64,000 nt of DNA from the NCBI GenBank assembly GCA_003599195.1, contig QZIZ01000019.1:14188-78187 (forward strand), written 5' to 3'. The notes beneath the pieces are model-generated. The model made no database searches. It had not been told where the DNA came from and was given only the letters and a program-made list of their open reading frames with translations. Origin of the DNA: Deltaproteobacteria bacterium (lineage in GTDB: Bacteria; Desulfobacterota; Desulfobaccia; Desulfobaccales; 0-14-0-80-60-11). This document shows positions 5,720 through 12,041 of the stretch, piece by piece (the stretch's first letter is position 1; each line of letters begins with the position of its first letter). The translations under genes and the position numbers were made by a program.

Positions 5720-6418
5720 ATGCAGACGGAAAGATTCCGGCGGGGGGCCTTGATCAAGGCCGTGATCCTCATTCTGTTCGTGGCCGCCGCGGTGGTGACG
5801 GTCCGCACTCCCGCGGTCAAGGAGGCGCTGACCGCAGAAAAGCTGGGCGCCATGCTGGCGGCCGCGGGCGCCTGGGCCCCTGTGGCCTTTATTGTGTTTT
5901 ACGCCGTAGGGGTCTGCCTGTTCATCCCCGGGACTTTGCTCACCGCGCTGGGGGCCGCCATCTTCGGGGCCTATTGGGGGTTTGTCTACGTCTGGGTGGC
6001 CGCCATGCTGGGGGCCGCAGGGGCCTTTCTCATCGGCAGGTACCTGGGGCGGGAGTTCGCGGCTGCCCTCATCGGCGAGCGGCTGAAGAAGTATGACGAC
6101 GCCATCGAGCGCAACGGCTTCGCCACCGTGCTCTACTTACGGTTGGTTTATTTCCCCTTTACCCCCATGAACTTCGGCATGGGGCTGACCAAAGTGCGCT
6201 TTAAGGATTACCTCTGGGGCACGGGGCTGGGGATCTTGGCGGGCACCTTCATCTTCACCTTCTTTGTGGGCACCGTCAAGGAGGTCTGGGCCAGCGGCCA
6301 ATGGGCCAACCTCCTCACCTGGCAAGTATTTTTTTCCCTGGGACTCTTTGTTTTTTCCCTCTTTATTCCCAAGATCATCGATAAGCTGAAGGTCTGGAAA
6401 GGGATCAAGCCTGTTTAA
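5720..6418 (+). CDS. TVP38/TMEM64 (DedA superfamily) membrane protein
   Basis: PGTLLTALGAAIFG, F-x-IGRYLGR, LRLVYFPF...GLT motifs; hydrophobic. Confidence 0.9.
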   Translation: MQTERFRRGALIKAVILILFVAAAVVTVRTPAVKEALTAEKLGAMLAAAGAWAPVAFIVFYAVGVCLFIPGTLLTALGAAIFGAYWGFVYVWVAAMLGAAGAFLIGRYLGREFAAALIGERLKKYDDAIERNGFATVLYLRLVYFPFTPMNFGMGLTKVRFKDYLWGTGLGILAGTFIFTFFVGTVKEVWASGQWANLLTWQVFFSLGLFVFSLFIPKIIDKLKVWKGIKPV

Positions 6419-7041
6419 ACCTTTTCTCCGGCGATAACCACGAAAACCCCTTGGCCATGGCCGCTCTTCACCGGTTCCGGCGCCGTAATCGCCGCCGGGT
6501 CTTGAAAAATGGTCTGGCAAGTCTGAATGTTCAGATAATTCAGCTCAACCAGCCATTTCAGGACCCGGCCCACCGGCTGGAACCTCGCCTGGCGGTAAAA
6601 TTTACTCTTTTCCCGGTTGGCCTCATATAATTTCCCCAAAGGGCTCTCCGGATCGATCATGCCGATGATCAGCCGTCCTTGGGGTTTAAGGACCCGGGTC
6701 GCCTCTTCAAGAGCGCGGCCAGGGTCTTTCAGGAAGCACAGGACGGTGACCATCAGAATAAAATCAAAAGATTCATCTTTGAAAGGAAGTTCTTCCCCGT
6801 AAGCCTCGTGGACCTCGATCCCCCGTTTTCCGGCGATCTCGGCCATGGCCCGGGCGGGCTCCACCCCCACTTCGATCCCCAGGGCCGCGGCAAACCTGCC
6901 GGTCCCCACCCCGATTTCCAGCCCCCGGCCTGCTTGCGGCATAAAGGCTTTGATGGCCGCCAGTTCGGAGCGGAAGGCGATCTCATGGCGGACAAACCAA
7001 TCATCGTATTCCTGGGCCGCTTCTTCAAAAACATCGGTCAT
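6415..7041 (-). CDS. Class I SAM-dependent methyltransferase
   Basis: GLEIGVGTGRFA motif I, LPFKDESFD, RVLKPQG; start moved to 7041 (GGAGG upstream); 4-nt TTAA convergent overlap with TVP38 gene. Confidence 0.9.
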   Translation of the reverse strand: MTDVFEEAAQEYDDWFVRHEIAFRSELAAIKAFMPQAGRGLEIGVGTGRFAAALGIEVGVEPARAMAEIAGKRGIEVHEAYGEELPFKDESFDFILMVTVLCFLKDPGRALEEATRVLKPQGRLIIGMIDPESPLGKLYEANREKSKFYRQARFQPVGRVLKWLVELNYLNIQTCQTIFQDPAAITAPEPVKSGHGQGVFVVIAGEKV

Positions 7042-7073
7042 CGGAAAAACTCTCTCCTCCCTTATGAGAGCGG

Positions 7074-7580
7074 TTACTGTGACATTATAACTCCGGTAAC
7101 CAGCAATACCGCCAGCCCCAGAACTAAATTTACTTTTACCAGATTTAATGACAACTTTTGCAGCCCGGCGACCCGGGAGGATAAAGCAGGCGTCCCCTCG
7201 GCCTGGGCGGCCAATCTCCCGATTTTGGGAGCCAATAACCATCCCCGGTAAAAATGGATAACCACCATCACGAGTACCAGGAGGTGTTTCACGCCCATTA
7301 CGGGGGTCCAATGATTATAAAATTCCAGGGGATTGGCCATATCTTTGCCGTAATGGCCGAGGATCGGACCGGTGATAATCAATACTACGATACTGGCGTT
7401 AACCATGGGGGTCAAACGCCTGGTTATCTCTTTCATCAGTTTGCCGGTCAAAGGCGGTGATTCCAAAGAGGTCCTGGCCCCGGGCAGTATCACCAAAAGG
7501 ACCATAAAGATGCCGCCGATCCAGACCACGGTGGCCAATAAATGGAGAAAGTGGCTTAAACTCAAAATCAGCAAATTCAT
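7074..7580 (-). CDS. CopD/DUF4149-like four-helix membrane protein
   Basis: SHFLHLLATVVWIGG motif, 4 hydrophobic segments. Confidence 0.75.
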   Translation of the reverse strand: MNLLILSLSHFLHLLATVVWIGGIFMVLLVILPGARTSLESPPLTGKLMKEITRRLTPMVNASIVVLIITGPILGHYGKDMANPLEFYNHWTPVMGVKHLLVLVMVVIHFYRGWLLAPKIGRLAAQAEGTPALSSRVAGLQKLSLNLVKVNLVLGLAVLLVTGVIMSQ

Positions 7581-7628
7581 CGCGGGTCTCCCATACAAGG
7601 CGTCATAAGTAATTGCACATCCTGAATC

Positions 7629-7690
7629 CCTGCGCTCTCTGCTCTCTGCGTTAAAAAGATTCACCGCAGAGACGCAGAGGACGCAGAGAA
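7629..7690. repeat. Inverted CGCAGAGA-type short-repeat element
   Basis: CTCTGCTCTCTGCG ... CGCAGAGACGCAGAGGACGCAGAGA. Confidence 0.7.
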
Positions 7691-7940: not shown

Positions 7941-8315
7941 TCAGAAAGTCATTACCGCGTCAGACTCAACGACCATGCTATTCAGGGTCGGAGCACAGAC
8001 TATTTTGGCCCCCTCTATGAAACCTTTTTCGAGATCGATTCCCAGCATGCGCGCGCTCTCCTCGCATACCAGAAACGAGACGCCCGCCTCCGCAGCCTGC
8101 ACGATCGCATCTTTCAGACATCCGAAAGGCTGCGGCAACGTAATCTTCTCGGCCTGCCCTTTTTGGAGAACCGTCACCCCCTTTATTCCAAAAAAAATGG
8201 AAGCGTCCATATCCATTGCCTTGGCCGTGGCGCCAAGGATAAAAGGAGCGTAGGTGCGCTCCGGGGTTTCCACACCGCTGGTTTGAATGTAGAGGACTTT
8301 CTTTCTTGCACTCAT
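7941..8315 (-). CDS. DsrE/DsrF-like sulfur-relay/peroxiredoxin family protein
   Basis: IFFGIKGVTVL, AGVSFLVCEES, DAVMTF C-terminus. Confidence 0.85.
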   Translation of the reverse strand: MSARKKVLYIQTSGVETPERTYAPFILGATAKAMDMDASIFFGIKGVTVLQKGQAEKITLPQPFGCLKDAIVQAAEAGVSFLVCEESARMLGIDLEKGFIEGAKIVCAPTLNSMVVESDAVMTF

Positions 8316-8371: not shown

Positions 8372-8557
8372 TTACTTTCCCTGGAGTTTCCCCAGGTGCT
8401 CCTCCACCCCGGCCAGTTCTTTTTTCAGTTGTTCCCGGTAGTTCTCCAGGCACTCCAGTTCCTCGGGGGCTGAAAAGAACTTGCGGAAAGAAAGGCCGCA
8501 ACCGCAGTCGCACCCGCATACCGGTCCCGGATGCTGCGTTACTCTGGGCGTACACAT
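8372..8557 (-). CDS. Small Cys-rich coiled-coil protein (DUF5320-like)
   Basis: AAAGGAGGTG SD; CGCDCGCG followed by ELECLENYREQLKKELAGVEEHL. Confidence 0.75.
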   Translation of the reverse strand: MCTPRVTQHPGPVCGCDCGCGLSFRKFFSAPEELECLENYREQLKKELAGVEEHLGKLQGK

Positions 8558-8632: not shown

Positions 8633-9037
8633 TTATTTGGATTTTTCCTTGATCCGCTGCCGCACCGCGTTCAGCTCCTCCTGGAGGTCCTTCTCATATT
8701 GTTTCAGGGCCTCCACGTCCGAACTCTCGAATTCCTGTTCCCGCCATTTCATGGTGCCCCGGCAGCCGCAACTGCAGACTTCCGTCAACTGGCGCCGGTA
8801 TTTCTCCAGGGCCTCCTCGTTAATGGAGTAGGGAATCCAGTACCCCTGCCTTTCGCTCCGCACCAGCCCGGCCTGCCGCAGGATCTTGAGATGCTGGGAG
8901 GCCGCGGCTGCGGTGATCCCCAACTGCCGGGCGATCTCCTTGGCCCCCAGGGGCCCCTGGGCCTTCATCAGATCAAGTATCCTGACCCGGGTCTCCACGG
9001 CCAGGACCTTGAACATTTCGGAGACTTCCAATTCCAT
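8633..9037 (-). CDS. ArsR family regulator with C-terminal CSCGC and coiled-coil extension
   Basis: FKVLAVETRVRIL...AASQHLKILRQAGLV HTH. Confidence 0.9.
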   Translation of the reverse strand: MELEVSEMFKVLAVETRVRILDLMKAQGPLGAKEIARQLGITAAAASQHLKILRQAGLVRSERQGYWIPYSINEEALEKYRRQLTEVCSCGCRGTMKWREQEFESSDVEALKQYEKDLQEELNAVRQRIKEKSK

Positions 9038-9153: not shown

Positions 9154-10368
9154 CTAATGCAGCAATAGAAAAAGAATTGGGGGTACCCGCGTGGGCTTGG
9201 GTTTGACGGGGGTTCTGTCGGCCCGGCCGGTATGCCGGGGGTCGTGGCGAAACATGGGCCAGGGGGTGGCCGCCGGGCCGGGGGAAGCGCTCTCCACGGC
9301 ATGGAGAATGCCATCCTGGGAAGCCACGTAAACCGTGCCGTCGGGGCCGATGACCGGCGAGGATTCGATGGCGTCCGCGACCTCAAAAGCCCATTTCAGG
9401 CTGCCGTCTTCCGGGTTGACCGCATAAAGAAATCCACCACTGCCCCCCACATAGATAATGCCGTCCGCGCCCACGGCCGGCGAGGAATAGATCGGCCCAC
9501 CTTCAGAAAGGGGAACCCCCCAATTCAGGATGCCGTTAGGATAGACCGCCAATAAATAACCCAGGTCTGTGCCCACATAGATGGTCCCGTACGCGTCGAT
9601 GGCCGGCGAGGAGCGGATGGGGAAAAAACTCTCAAAAAGGACCCATTTCCGGCTGCCATCCGGATTGACGGCGTAAAGCTTGGTGTCGCCCGAGCCTAGA
9701 TAGACGGTGCCGTCCGTCCCCACGGCCGGGGAAGAGTCGAGGGGACCCTCGGTGGTGAAGTACCACTTTATGTTGCCGTTCGAATCTATGGCGTATAGCT
9801 TGCCAATGATGGCGGTGGTGGCATCGATGGCGCCCACGTAAACGGTGCCGTCCAGGTCTAGGGCCGGAGAGGAACTCACCCAATTCCCCAGGGCAACGCG
9901 CCACTTCTCATTGCCGTCGGCATCGACCGCGTAGAGGTTGCCGTCATCGGACCCCACGTAGATGGTCCCGCCCGGGCCGATGGCCGGTGAGGACATGATT
10001 GCGGCTCCGGTCTCAAAAGCCCATTTCGGGCTGCCGTCAGCCGGGTTAAGGGCATAGAGCTTCCCGCCAACAGAACCCGCGTAAACGGTCCCATCTTCCC
10101 CCAGGGCCGGGGAAGAGTACATGAACATATCCTCCATGGCGGTATCAAAAACCCACTTCTGAGTGCCGTCCGGATTGACCGCGTGAAAGACCCCGAACAG
10201 GGTTCCGATATACAGCGTGCCGTCCGGGGCCAGGGCGGGGGAGGTGGTGACGATATCGTCGGTGGCATAGGCCCATTTGGCGTCGCCGGGGGCGGCCCGA
10301 GCCGCGCCGGTCAGAGCCAGGGCCAAAACGACGCACTGGAGGGATAAAACAAGGGCTTTCTTCCCCAT
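9154..10368 (-). CDS. Secreted PQQ-like (BamB-type) beta-propeller repeat protein
   Basis: Signal peptide; eight SSPA-x-G-x-DGT-x-YVG...KW type repeats; WPMFRHDPRHTG; hydrophobic C-terminal tail. Confidence 0.9.
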   Translation of the reverse strand: MGKKALVLSLQCVVLALALTGAARAAPGDAKWAYATDDIVTTSPALAPDGTLYIGTLFGVFHAVNPDGTQKWVFDTAMEDMFMYSSPALGEDGTVYAGSVGGKLYALNPADGSPKWAFETGAAIMSSPAIGPGGTIYVGSDDGNLYAVDADGNEKWRVALGNWVSSSPALDLDGTVYVGAIDATTAIIGKLYAIDSNGNIKWYFTTEGPLDSSPAVGTDGTVYLGSGDTKLYAVNPDGSRKWVLFESFFPIRSSPAIDAYGTIYVGTDLGYLLAVYPNGILNWGVPLSEGGPIYSSPAVGADGIIYVGGSGGFLYAVNPEDGSLKWAFEVADAIESSPVIGPDGTVYVASQDGILHAVESASPGPAATPWPMFRHDPRHTGRADRTPVKPKPTRVPPILFLLLH

Positions 10369-10557
10369 GAGCCGCTCCTCTCAAAGGCCTATGAGGACAC
10401 CAGTAAAACGAACCATTACTGCGGCAGGAAGTGGTTAGATGATAACACAAGATCCTGTAAAAATCAATTATTCGGGGTCTGCCGTACCTCCCCCGGAGCC
10501 GTCAAGCCCCGCATGGTGGTGCGAACCATGGGCCAAACCCGCCCGGCCCGGGCGGGA

Positions 10558-11412
10558 TTATTGCTTAGGCGCTCACGCTCCGCCCGGAGCGCACTCCACC
10601 ACTTTAGGCTCCTCCACTTGGACCGCCTGGGTGGCGATCATCGCCTGCGCCCGCGCATCCACCAGTTTTTCCCCGTAAAACATGGCCCCTTCGGTGTAGG
10701 GAGAGGTCTTGAAGCCGGTGTAGGCCCTCAGGCCCGCCCGGTGGAAGCCCGCTTTCAGCAGCAGCGCCAGGAAGTCCCTTCCCGGCAGGGCGCCGCCGAT
10801 TCACTGGTACCAGTTTTCAATCTTCCCCGCCTTATCCGGGGGGAGTTCCGCCACCAGCACCATGTCCGCCAACATGAGGCGGCCCCCGGGCTTCAGCACC
10901 CGGTGGGCCTCTAACAAAGCCTTTTCCTTGTCCAGGGTAAGGTTAAAGACGCCGTTGGAGATGACTGCGTCGAACTCGTTATCCGGGAAAGGCAGGGATT
11001 CGGCCTCCGCCAACTGAAAAGTGACATTTGTTAGGCCCAGGACAGAGAGGTTGGCTTTAGCCTTGTCTATCATGGCCTGGGTCACGTCAACGCCCGCCAC
11101 CCGGCCCTCCGGCCCCGCCATCTTCGCCGCCAGAAGCGAGTCCAGCCCCGCGCCGCAGCCGATGTCCAGGACTGCGTCCCCGGGGTGGATAGGCCCCAGG
11201 CTGAAGGGGTTGCCCACCCCGCAGAAGGAGTCGATAAGGGCGGCCGGAAAATCCCGGAGCAGGTCCAGGGGGTAACCCTGCTGCTTCAGCCCTTCCAGGC
11301 CGGTGGGGTACCTGAAGCATGAAGCCGCGCCCGCGGCCGCCACCTGGGAGTATTTGCTCTTGATGCTCTCCCGGATCAGGGTGATATCTTTTTCGGTCAG
11401 ATTAGATTCCAT
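10558..11412 (-). CDS. ArsM-like SAM methyltransferase selenoprotein; Sec204 at TGA 10803-10801; second TGA 10575-10573 is a stop or a second Sec
   Basis: SFCGVGNP, VLDIGCGAG, ISNGVFNL; read-through gives NWYQ-U-IGGALPGRDFLALLLKAGF, matching ArsM W-x-x-C-I-x-GAL; hairpin GCCGGGAAG-GGA-CTTCCTGGC with loop at +24. Confidence 0.85.
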
Positions 11413-11437
11413 AATATTTACCTAAAGTCGCGCCTTT

Positions 11438-11465
11438 CTTTGCGCCTTGGCGTCTTTGCGTGAGA
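11438..11465. repeat. CTTTGCGC/CTTGGCGT 8-mer repeat element (single arm)
   Basis: CTTTGCGCCTTGGCGTCTTTGCGTGAGA, same family as 25887-26008, 52435 and 53199. Confidence 0.75.
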
Positions 11466-11474
11466 ACTATCTTT

Positions 11475-12041
11475 TCACAGTTCCTTCCCGATGGAGAAGG
11501 CCTTGCCCAGATATTGGCCGATCCCGTGGTAGGTGCGGATTTCCGGGCCGAAGACAATGGGCTTCACCTTCTCGATGTCCGCCATGCCCTTCTCCCCCAG
11601 CACGCTGTCATCGGCCTTGACGTCCAGGACTTCGCCGATGAACTGGGTGTGCAGGCCGATTTCGATGGTGTGGATTACTTTGCATTCCAGGACCAGGGGA
11701 AATTCCTGCACATAGGGCGCGTCCACCAGGCCGCTTTTCACCGGCGTCAGCCCGGCCGCGGTGAACTTGTTCCCGGCCTTGCCGGAGGCGATGCCGCAAT
11801 AATCGGCTTCCTTGACGTAAGCTTCCGGGGGGATGCTGACGGTGAAGGCCTTTTTCAGCATCAGGTTGCCGTAAGTGTAGGTGGCTTTCCGCAGCGAGAC
11901 CCCGACGCAGGGCGGCTGGGAGCAGACGATCCCGGCCCAGGCCGCGGTCATGATATTGGGTGTGCCCGCCGCGTCATAAGTCCCCACCAGCCACACCGGG
12001 GTGGGGAAGGCCAGGGTCTTGGGACCCAGGGATTTTTTCAT
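11475..12041 (-). CDS. Flavoredoxin / flavin reductase family protein
   Basis: PTPVWLVGTYD...NIMTAAW, ADYCGIASG, LECKV, HTQFIGE. Confidence 0.9.
   Translation of the reverse strand: MKKSLGPKTLAFPTPVWLVGTYDAAGTPNIMTAAWAGIVCSQPPCVGVSLRKATYTYGNLMLKKAFTVSIPPEAYVKEADYCGIASGKAGNKFTAAGLTPVKSGLVDAPYVQEFPLVLECKVIHTIEIGLHTQFIGEVLDVKADDSVLGEKGMADIEKVKPIVFGPEIRTYHGIGQYLGKAFSIGKEL

Follow-up and report, generated by a model that had tools for sequence, protein, structure and literature searches.

A predicted double selenoprotein of the ArsM methyltransferase lineage, with a second selenocysteine near its C terminus, in a Desulfobaccales genome

Selenocysteine (Sec; U in sequence motifs) is known from relatives of the arsenite methyltransferase ArsM. 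Table 1 of a 2026 review (PMC13188914) lists a methyltransferase family with two Sec residues and the motif UxxG as "predicted with high confidence" and credits it to Haft and Tolstoy (2025, mSystems 10:e0141724); in the same review, "experimentally verified" status is given to the single-Sec arsenite methyltransferase, with citation of Fomenko et al. (2007, Science 315:387). In NCBIfam, the double-Sec family is represented by the curated hidden Markov model (HMM) NF047649 (methyltransferase/UXPK-star double selenoprotein), and its C-terminal tail is represented by NF047647 (UXPK-star domain). Here, we describe a gene on the minus strand of a 64,000-nucleotide stretch of contig QZIZ01000019.1 (assembly GCA_003599195.1, a deltaproteobacterium of the Desulfobaccales), referred to below as the window. 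The gene contains two in-frame UGA codons, and both most likely encode Sec. We assign a probability of about 0.9 to the reading in which the product is a 284-residue S-adenosylmethionine (SAM)-dependent methyltransferase of the ArsM lineage, with both UGAs read as Sec, a soft metalloid or chalcogen as the proposed substrate, and the second Sec on a mobile arm. Judged by its sequence, the gene is a typical member of the catalogued family NF047649 and is not novel in kind, its architecture already having a curated HMM.

The gene starts at an ATG at position 11412 (protein N terminus, M-E-S-N-L-T), and 75 sense codons separate its two TGA codons, at codons 204 and 280 (Table 1). An earlier note on this DNA, made from the letters alone, had proposed Sec at both codons, each followed by a hairpin, and its coordinates, codon counts, hairpins, and hairpin distances are all correct in the minus-strand sequence. 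In the list of open reading frames (ORFs) made with translation table 11, only the 203-amino-acid (aa) front part of the protein appears. Its database relatives are likewise mostly short, with 118 of the 120 best matches listed being 199 to 233 aa long; gene callers halt at the first TGA.

The read-through protein matched NF047649 over the whole length of the model (530.5 bits; positions 1 to 283 of 283), above the curated cut-off of 460 bits, and residues 251 to 283 matched the tail model NF047647 at 49.3 bits (cut-off, 35 bits). Six-frame searches of the genome gave the same assignments, with two TGAs inside the NF047649 match (519.1 bits) and one inside the NF047647 match (43.6 bits), while Pfam recognized only generic methyltransferase domains in the read-through protein. 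Thus, the comparison with double-Sec methyltransferase HMMs that the earlier note had proposed yielded a direct match, and the features that mark a family member were found together: the whole-protein score, a TGA in the UxxG motif (Q-U-I-G-G), and a second TGA in the tail. The protein resembles the family in its full-length match, its length (284 residues against the 283 positions of the model), the UxxG Sec, and a near-C-terminal Sec before P-K, and it comes from the same lineage, the named relatives being Desulfobaccales metagenome-assembled genomes (MAGs). It differs in its tail, where U-A-P-K-Q-stop is one residue longer than the usual U-x-P-K-stop. An extra residue was also found in 2 of the 30 other orthologs, L055 (UPRQ) and L066 (UAPKK). 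Because of the extra codon, the second hairpin sits 3 nucleotides (nt) farther from its UGA than in most orthologs; with the T of the TGA as nt 1, its loop begins at nt 28, compared with nt 21 to 25 in most of the others.

The sister families, in which an ArsM-like core is fused to AhpD or DUF2284, share the methyltransferase core (FCGVGNP, ISNGV, and WxxU-IGGA) with the protein described here, but they carry an extra domain between the core and the Sec tail that it does not have. Its scores against both sister models were below the cut-offs (ArsM/AhpD, 349.9 against 510; ArsM/DUF2284, 312.2 against 575). A hairpin likewise follows the C-terminal G-G-x-U-(P/R)-R-stop of the AhpD fusions seen in the relatives (L021, L025, and L027). 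In the single-Sec arsenite methyltransferase (NF008823/PRK11873 type), the Sec likewise occupies the UxxG position of an ArsM-like core; however, this is its sole Sec and a C-terminal Sec tail is lacking, and the protein described here scores 198 bits against the NF008823 cut-off of 263.

In the search for relatives, which covered 41 genomes, 13 genomes passed the family cut-off, always with exactly two TGAs inside the match. Of 401 genomes sampled across the phylum, only 5 had a match over the cut-off of the tail model; every one of these matches contained one TGA, and all 5 genomes belong to the window's own family-level group. A Cys version of the tail was not found in the 401 genomes; the lone stop-free match scored 22.6 bits, below the cut-off, and lay in a 444-aa frame.

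To examine the two codons, orthologs were collected from the search for relatives and from the named Desulfobaccales MAGs, giving a set of 31 distinct loci from different assemblies. Codon 204 is TGA in all 31. The earlier note would have given up the first Sec had similarity ended at position 10801; instead, few parts of the 31-sequence alignment are as well conserved as the region that follows codon 204 (IGGAxPGxDFLxL...YTGFKxSPYTEGALFYGEK). Two full-length homologs, P0016 and P0021 (268 aa), have Cys at position 204.

The case for Sec280 rests on comparison, because only four codons follow it. Codon 280 is TGA in 31 of 31 orthologs, and neither TAA nor TAG, which the earlier note had said would speak against a second Sec, occurs there in any of them. 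The true stop that follows the x-P-K/R tail is, in contrast, variable (TAA in 19, TAG in 7, and TGA in 5). Pro282 is at least 90% conserved, and its codon varies synonymously among CCT, CCC, and CCG. The second, C-terminal Sec that had been proposed is therefore supported by the invariant TGA, by the varying later stop, and by the match to the curated tail model. In the five orthologs whose tail stop is itself TGA (L008, L012, L026, L062, and L073), this codon lies 9 to 12 nt after the Sec TGA and abuts the hairpin; the Sec UGA and the stop UGA are presumably told apart there by their distances to the hairpin. In L043, a Tyr codon takes the place of the stop after U-K-P-K, and the frame continues for 20 codons to another TGA; the extension may be genuine or may stem from an assembly variant.

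In bacteria, a selenocysteine insertion sequence (SECIS) is a stem-loop located shortly downstream of the UGA, with an apical loop that begins with G and a conserved distance to the UGA. Both hairpins have these features (uninterrupted stems in 31/31 and 28/31 orthologs, respectively). The loop of the first hairpin starts at nt 27, and in the orthologs its uninterrupted stem of 6 to 10 bp has its loop start at nt 26 to 27, with a GGA or GGC loop in 27 of 31; the 9-bp hairpin with a GGA loop that had been noticed downstream of TGA204 thus has a counterpart in every ortholog. The second hairpin has an uninterrupted stem of 6 to 9 bp in 28 orthologs, with the loop starting at nt 21 to 28 and beginning with G in 25 of the 28; the other 3 orthologs have interrupted stems. 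Its stem sequences vary (CCGCTTC/GAAGCGG, CCCGCCCG/CGGGCGGG, and CCCGTCC/GGACGGG), and its position is constant. A scan of positions 10400 to 11500 against Rfam at E values up to 1 gave no relevant family, and none reached the gathering score.

Since folding energies of a single sequence are weak evidence, the evidence for the hairpins comes from comparison. For the first hairpin, all 20 loci from the search for relatives were aligned; for the second, 18 were used, L022 and L024 having been dropped as tail-less. In the first alignment, 96.1% of cells were paired, compared with 33 to 59% when the 3' partner was slid, and both-side changes occurred in 3 of 9 pairs. The closing pair is formed by the second base of an Arg/Lys/Thr codon and the third base of the next Asp/Glu codon, which covary (G-C in 11 sequences, A-U in 6, C-G in 1, and unpaired in 2). 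In the second alignment, compensatory changes were present in 6 of the 7 pairs given by RNAalifold, and 91.2% of cells were paired, compared with 40 to 57% when slid. For each hairpin, 0 of 500 shuffles reached the observed values, a control in which related sequences may outdo shuffles without any structure. In single-sequence folding, the first hairpin had a z value of −1.95, with 6 of 200 shuffles folding as well.

The earlier note had correctly described the second hairpin as having an 8-bp stem, a GGC loop, and a spacing similar to that of the first. It had placed the hairpin mostly in the 3' untranslated region (UTR); in fact, the hairpin lies wholly within it, the coding sequence ending four codons and a stop after Sec280. 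Its suggestion that the hairpin might be a terminator did not hold. On the gene strand the stem was not called a terminator, it is followed by the 3' tail TTTGGCCC, which has no T-tract, and it covaries; an intrinsic terminator on the gene strand was therefore rejected, and a secondary role in the stability of the mRNA 3' end is possible.

Next, the relation to ArsM was examined. A phmmer search of the PDB returned ArsM chains as the best matches (5evj, E = 1.3e-26; 5eg5, 4kw7, and 4fr0, E of about 2e-20). An AlphaFold2 model built from the 31 orthologs had a mean predicted local distance difference test (pLDDT) value of 83 and a predicted template modeling (TM) score of 0.83, and among the matches listed by Foldseek, ranks through 13 were all ArsM or AS3MT (4fr0, E = 2e-17; TM score of about 0.6). 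Sequence matches (E = 1e-26 to 2e-20) and structure search thus agree on an ArsM-type SAM methyltransferase fold. In the phmmer alignments to the solved chains 5evj and 5eg5/4fr0, Sec204 is matched to the Cys of ECL(A/G)GAL and Gly154 to the Cys of ISNCV, as had been proposed from the motifs, and the Cys of G-C-G-N-P is aligned to Val66, with Cys64 two residues upstream. Cys64, Gly154, Sec204, and Sec280 are invariant across the 31 orthologs, Cys274 is present in 27, and Cys32 is variable. Compared with canonical ArsM/AS3MT (4fr0, 4fsd, 6cx6, 5evj, and 8xt7), the protein has the same fold and the same SAM-binding motif and keeps the ECLxGAL metalloid-binding position; however, Sec, Gly, and Val stand at the ECLxGAL, ISNCV, and GCGNP cysteines, respectively. 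It is also about 100 residues shorter, with no C-terminal domain and a disordered Sec tail instead.

That tail was examined in the AlphaFold2 model. A helix spans residues 253 to 265, and nearly all of residues 267 to 284 have pLDDT values below 50 (267 to 273, 275 to 279, and 281 to 284), which fits a flexible arm. In mammalian thioredoxin reductase, a C-terminal arm carries Gly-Cys-Sec-Gly, and the SECIS is in the 3' UTR. The protein described here is similar in its near-terminal Sec, its predicted flexible arm, a nearby cysteine, and a putative SECIS in the 3' UTR, but the folds are unrelated and the SECIS system of the reductase is eukaryotic; the likeness serves as a working analogy only. 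A CxC motif that might compensate for the arm in the tail-less Cys homologs was considered and rejected, since WCQC occurs only in P0016 and P0021 has WFQC.

The genome encodes part of the machinery for Sec insertion. SelB was found at 363 bits (cut-off, 242 bits), and SelD was found over its cut-off (373 bits; G000:C48:14800-15714, minus strand). The SelD match contains one in-frame TGA, and SelD is therefore itself a selenoprotein here.

Table 1. Positions of the gene, its predicted recoding elements, neighboring genes, and ArsM paralogs. Coordinates are those of the window, except for the paralogs, which lie on other contigs.
Feature	Position	Strand	Description
Double selenoprotein coding sequence (CDS)	10558..11412	-	284 residues + TAA; TGA read as Sec at codons 204 and 280; basis, translation
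UGA codon 204 (predicted Sec)	10801..10803	-	Context W-Y-Q-U-I-G-G-A-L, then P-G-R-D-F
SECIS-like hairpin 1	10766..10786	-	Inside CDS; 9-bp stem GCCGGGAAG / CTTCCTGGC, loop GGA
UGA codon 280 (predicted Sec)	10573..10575	-	Context C-A-P-G-G-A-U-A-P-K-Q
Tail codons A-P-K-Q + TAA stop	10558..10572	-	TAA itself, 10560..10558
SECIS-like hairpin 2	10538..10556	-	Wholly 3' UTR, 1 nt past stop; 8-bp G+C stem CCCGCCCG / CGGGCGGG, loop GGC
Flavoredoxin-like gene	11475..12041	-	Directly upstream; PF01613, 122.7 bits; PDB 2d5m, E = 4.3e-76 over 1-187
Secreted PQQ-like beta-propeller gene	9154-10368	-	Between selenoprotein gene and ArsR gene
ArsR/SmtB-family metalloregulator	8633..9037	-	Downstream; NF033788, 85.3 bits (cut-off, 55)
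DsrE/DsrF-like protein	7941-8315	-	PF02635, 61.6 bits; same minus-strand cluster as ArsR
CopD-like/DUF4149 membrane protein	7074-7664	-	Downstream cluster
Second methyltransferase	6415-7311	-	Downstream cluster
All-Cys ArsM paralog	G000:C87:13272-13931	-	On another contig
All-Cys ArsM paralog	G000:C7:24938-25495	+	On another contig

Among the neighbors of the gene (Table 1), the flavoredoxin gene immediately precedes the selenoprotein gene, on the same strand, in 24 of the 31 orthologous loci; 3 of the 7 loci without it have less than 400 nt of upstream flank. The ArsR/SmtB regulator gene is directly downstream of the orthologous gene in four other loci (L008, L010, L012, and L018). The PQQ-like beta-propeller gene belongs to this locus only; the flanks of the 30 other orthologous loci do not contain it. 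Between the ArsR-family and DsrE-like genes, a 61-aa ORF (positions 8372 to 8557, minus strand) has the N terminus C-G-C-D-C-G-C-G and a helical-looking C terminus. It matched no Pfam family, and from its composition the product may be a small metal-binding protein.

Several observations weigh against the reading of the gene as a double-Sec methyltransferase with a mobile arm and a metalloid or chalcogen substrate. Neither SelA nor tRNA-Sec was found in the assembly, which is 81% complete and in 179 contigs; the best Rfam score for tRNA-Sec was 42.9, against a gathering score of 47, and aragorn found 44 tRNAs, with no Sec tRNA and with several amino acids also missing. These gaps are best explained by incompleteness, because SelA turned up in 22 of 25 genomes of relatives, and all 8 of those that belong to the same genus have it. 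In single-sequence folding (66 nt), the second hairpin was no better than shuffles (z = −0.14; 86 of 200). Cys274 is missing in 4 of 31 orthologs, and the flavoredoxin link is one of gene order alone. Gly occupies the ISNxV site in all 49 loci of a motif search, including about 13 without a Sec tail; the idea that the Sec arm simply stands in for the lost ISNCV cysteine was rejected as a general explanation, since tail-less members of the clade also have Gly there. With respect to the substrate, the arsenite methyltransferase models other than NF008823 (198 against 263 bits) likewise scored below their cut-offs (NF040538, 98.8 against 500; NF038099, 78 against 400). The three-cysteine metalloid site of ArsM (Cys72 and Cys224 in the numbering of the PDB titles 5eg5 and 5jx7, and Cys174 as the third) is changed at two of its positions, the third being kept in kind as Sec204. 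With two of the three canonical cysteine positions absent, it is not certain that arsenite is the substrate. Two canonical all-Cys ArsM paralogs, with the motif sets GCGNP/ISNCV/DCLAGA and YGCGSP/LSNCV/ECLGGA, lie on other contigs of the genome (Table 1), and the gene in the window is therefore an additional, rewired version and not the only ArsM of the organism. The longer of the two paralogs has a Cys-rich end (...G-G-C-S-C).

Whether both UGAs are recoded was weighed against two alternatives. In one, only the first UGA encodes Sec and the second is a real stop, so that a 279-residue protein would end in C-A-P-G-G-A, A-P-K-Q-stop would be untranslated, and the hairpin would be an mRNA-stabilizing or terminator stem. 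The four codons after the second UGA are indeed a short reading-frame signal, but x-P-K/R and a stop are kept in frame across the orthologs, with the conserved Pro282 encoded by synonymous codons, and the curated tail model NF047647 is matched over its cut-off. UGA does terminate in this context, since 5 of 31 orthologs have TGA as their next stop; yet codon 280 is TGA in every ortholog, and TAA, TAG, and TGA all occur as the in-frame stop after it. As for the hairpin, its poor single-sequence z value (−0.14) and the fact that the same stem was called terminator-like on the opposite strand would suit a terminator, whereas its kept distance (loop start at nt 21 to 28) and G-first loop would not, and at least 5 T within the 8 nt after the hairpin were seen in only 1 of the 28 uninterrupted hairpins (9-nt tails read by eye). 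We consider a stop at codon 280 improbable. Far less credible still is a decayed or misassembled methyltransferase, in which both TGAs would be nonsense mutations in a pseudogene or the reading frame would fall into two separate ORFs. Gene callers do end at the first TGA, leaving the 199- to 233-aa products seen in 118 of the 120 best listed matches, but the two TGAs line up in all 31 distinct orthologs, which come from different assemblies, conservation is strong on either side of codon 204, homologs with Cys at that position exist, and all 13 over-cut-off matches in 41 genomes contain exactly two TGAs.

The remaining alternative leaves both Sec residues in place and concerns the substrate: the protein would be a true double selenoprotein that methylates a soft nucleophile other than arsenic (for example, selenide, sulfide, tellurite, or a protein- or cofactor-borne thiol or selenol), and its likeness to ArsM would reflect fold ancestry only. 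All of its closest solved relatives, by sequence and, among the Foldseek matches listed, by fold, are ArsM or AS3MT, and the sister families are named as arsenite methyltransferase fusions, but the protein itself scores below the cut-offs of all arsenite methyltransferase models. Changes affect two of the three canonical Cys positions, whereas the metalloid-binding position is kept and upgraded to Sec. The gene neighborhood can be read both ways, with an ArsR/SmtB regulator recurring beside the gene and with DsrE-like, second methyltransferase, and CopD-like membrane protein genes, rather than ars genes, among the neighbors; a genome that already has two canonical ArsM paralogs also fits a different substrate. 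A non-arsenic substrate is a possibility to be taken seriously, if the less probable one.

For the double-Sec methyltransferase reading that we prefer, a working mechanism can be proposed. The SelB/tRNA-Sec system would decode both UGAs, each by means of its own hairpin at a fixed downstream distance, the first hairpin acting from within the CDS and the second acting from the 3' UTR. The substrate would be a soft metalloid or chalcogen, with As(III) as the first candidate, and would be held by Sec204 and Cys64. Sec280, usually together with Cys274, would lie on a flexible arm that swings into the site, where it might provide an extra ligand or a hand-off point or might act as a resolving or redox-relay residue. 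The product of the upstream flavoredoxin gene is a candidate electron donor. By analogy with thioredoxin reductase, we tentatively suggest a more specific scheme, one that is more likely wrong than right, in which Cys274-x5-Sec280 forms a mobile selenol arm, and a selenenylsulfide or diselenide that links this arm to Sec204 (or Cys64) in each methylation cycle is reduced by flavoredoxin. If this were true, the relay would let a core that lacks two canonical Cys positions turn over without glutathione or thioredoxin, and a dedicated path from flavoprotein to Sec arm to Sec active site would operate in metalloid or chalcogen methylation, like the Sec arm of thioredoxin reductase.

For genome annotation, the gene is a clear example of a selenoprotein cut short by standard gene calling. 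The family to which it is assigned pairs a predicted Sec at the ArsM metalloid-binding site with a second predicted Sec on a disordered arm, whose predicted SECIS lies wholly in the 3' UTR. If metalloids are methylated by this enzyme in the anaerobic Desulfobaccales, the finding would bear on who drives metalloid methylation in anoxic sediments and groundwater and on why selenium is used to do so.

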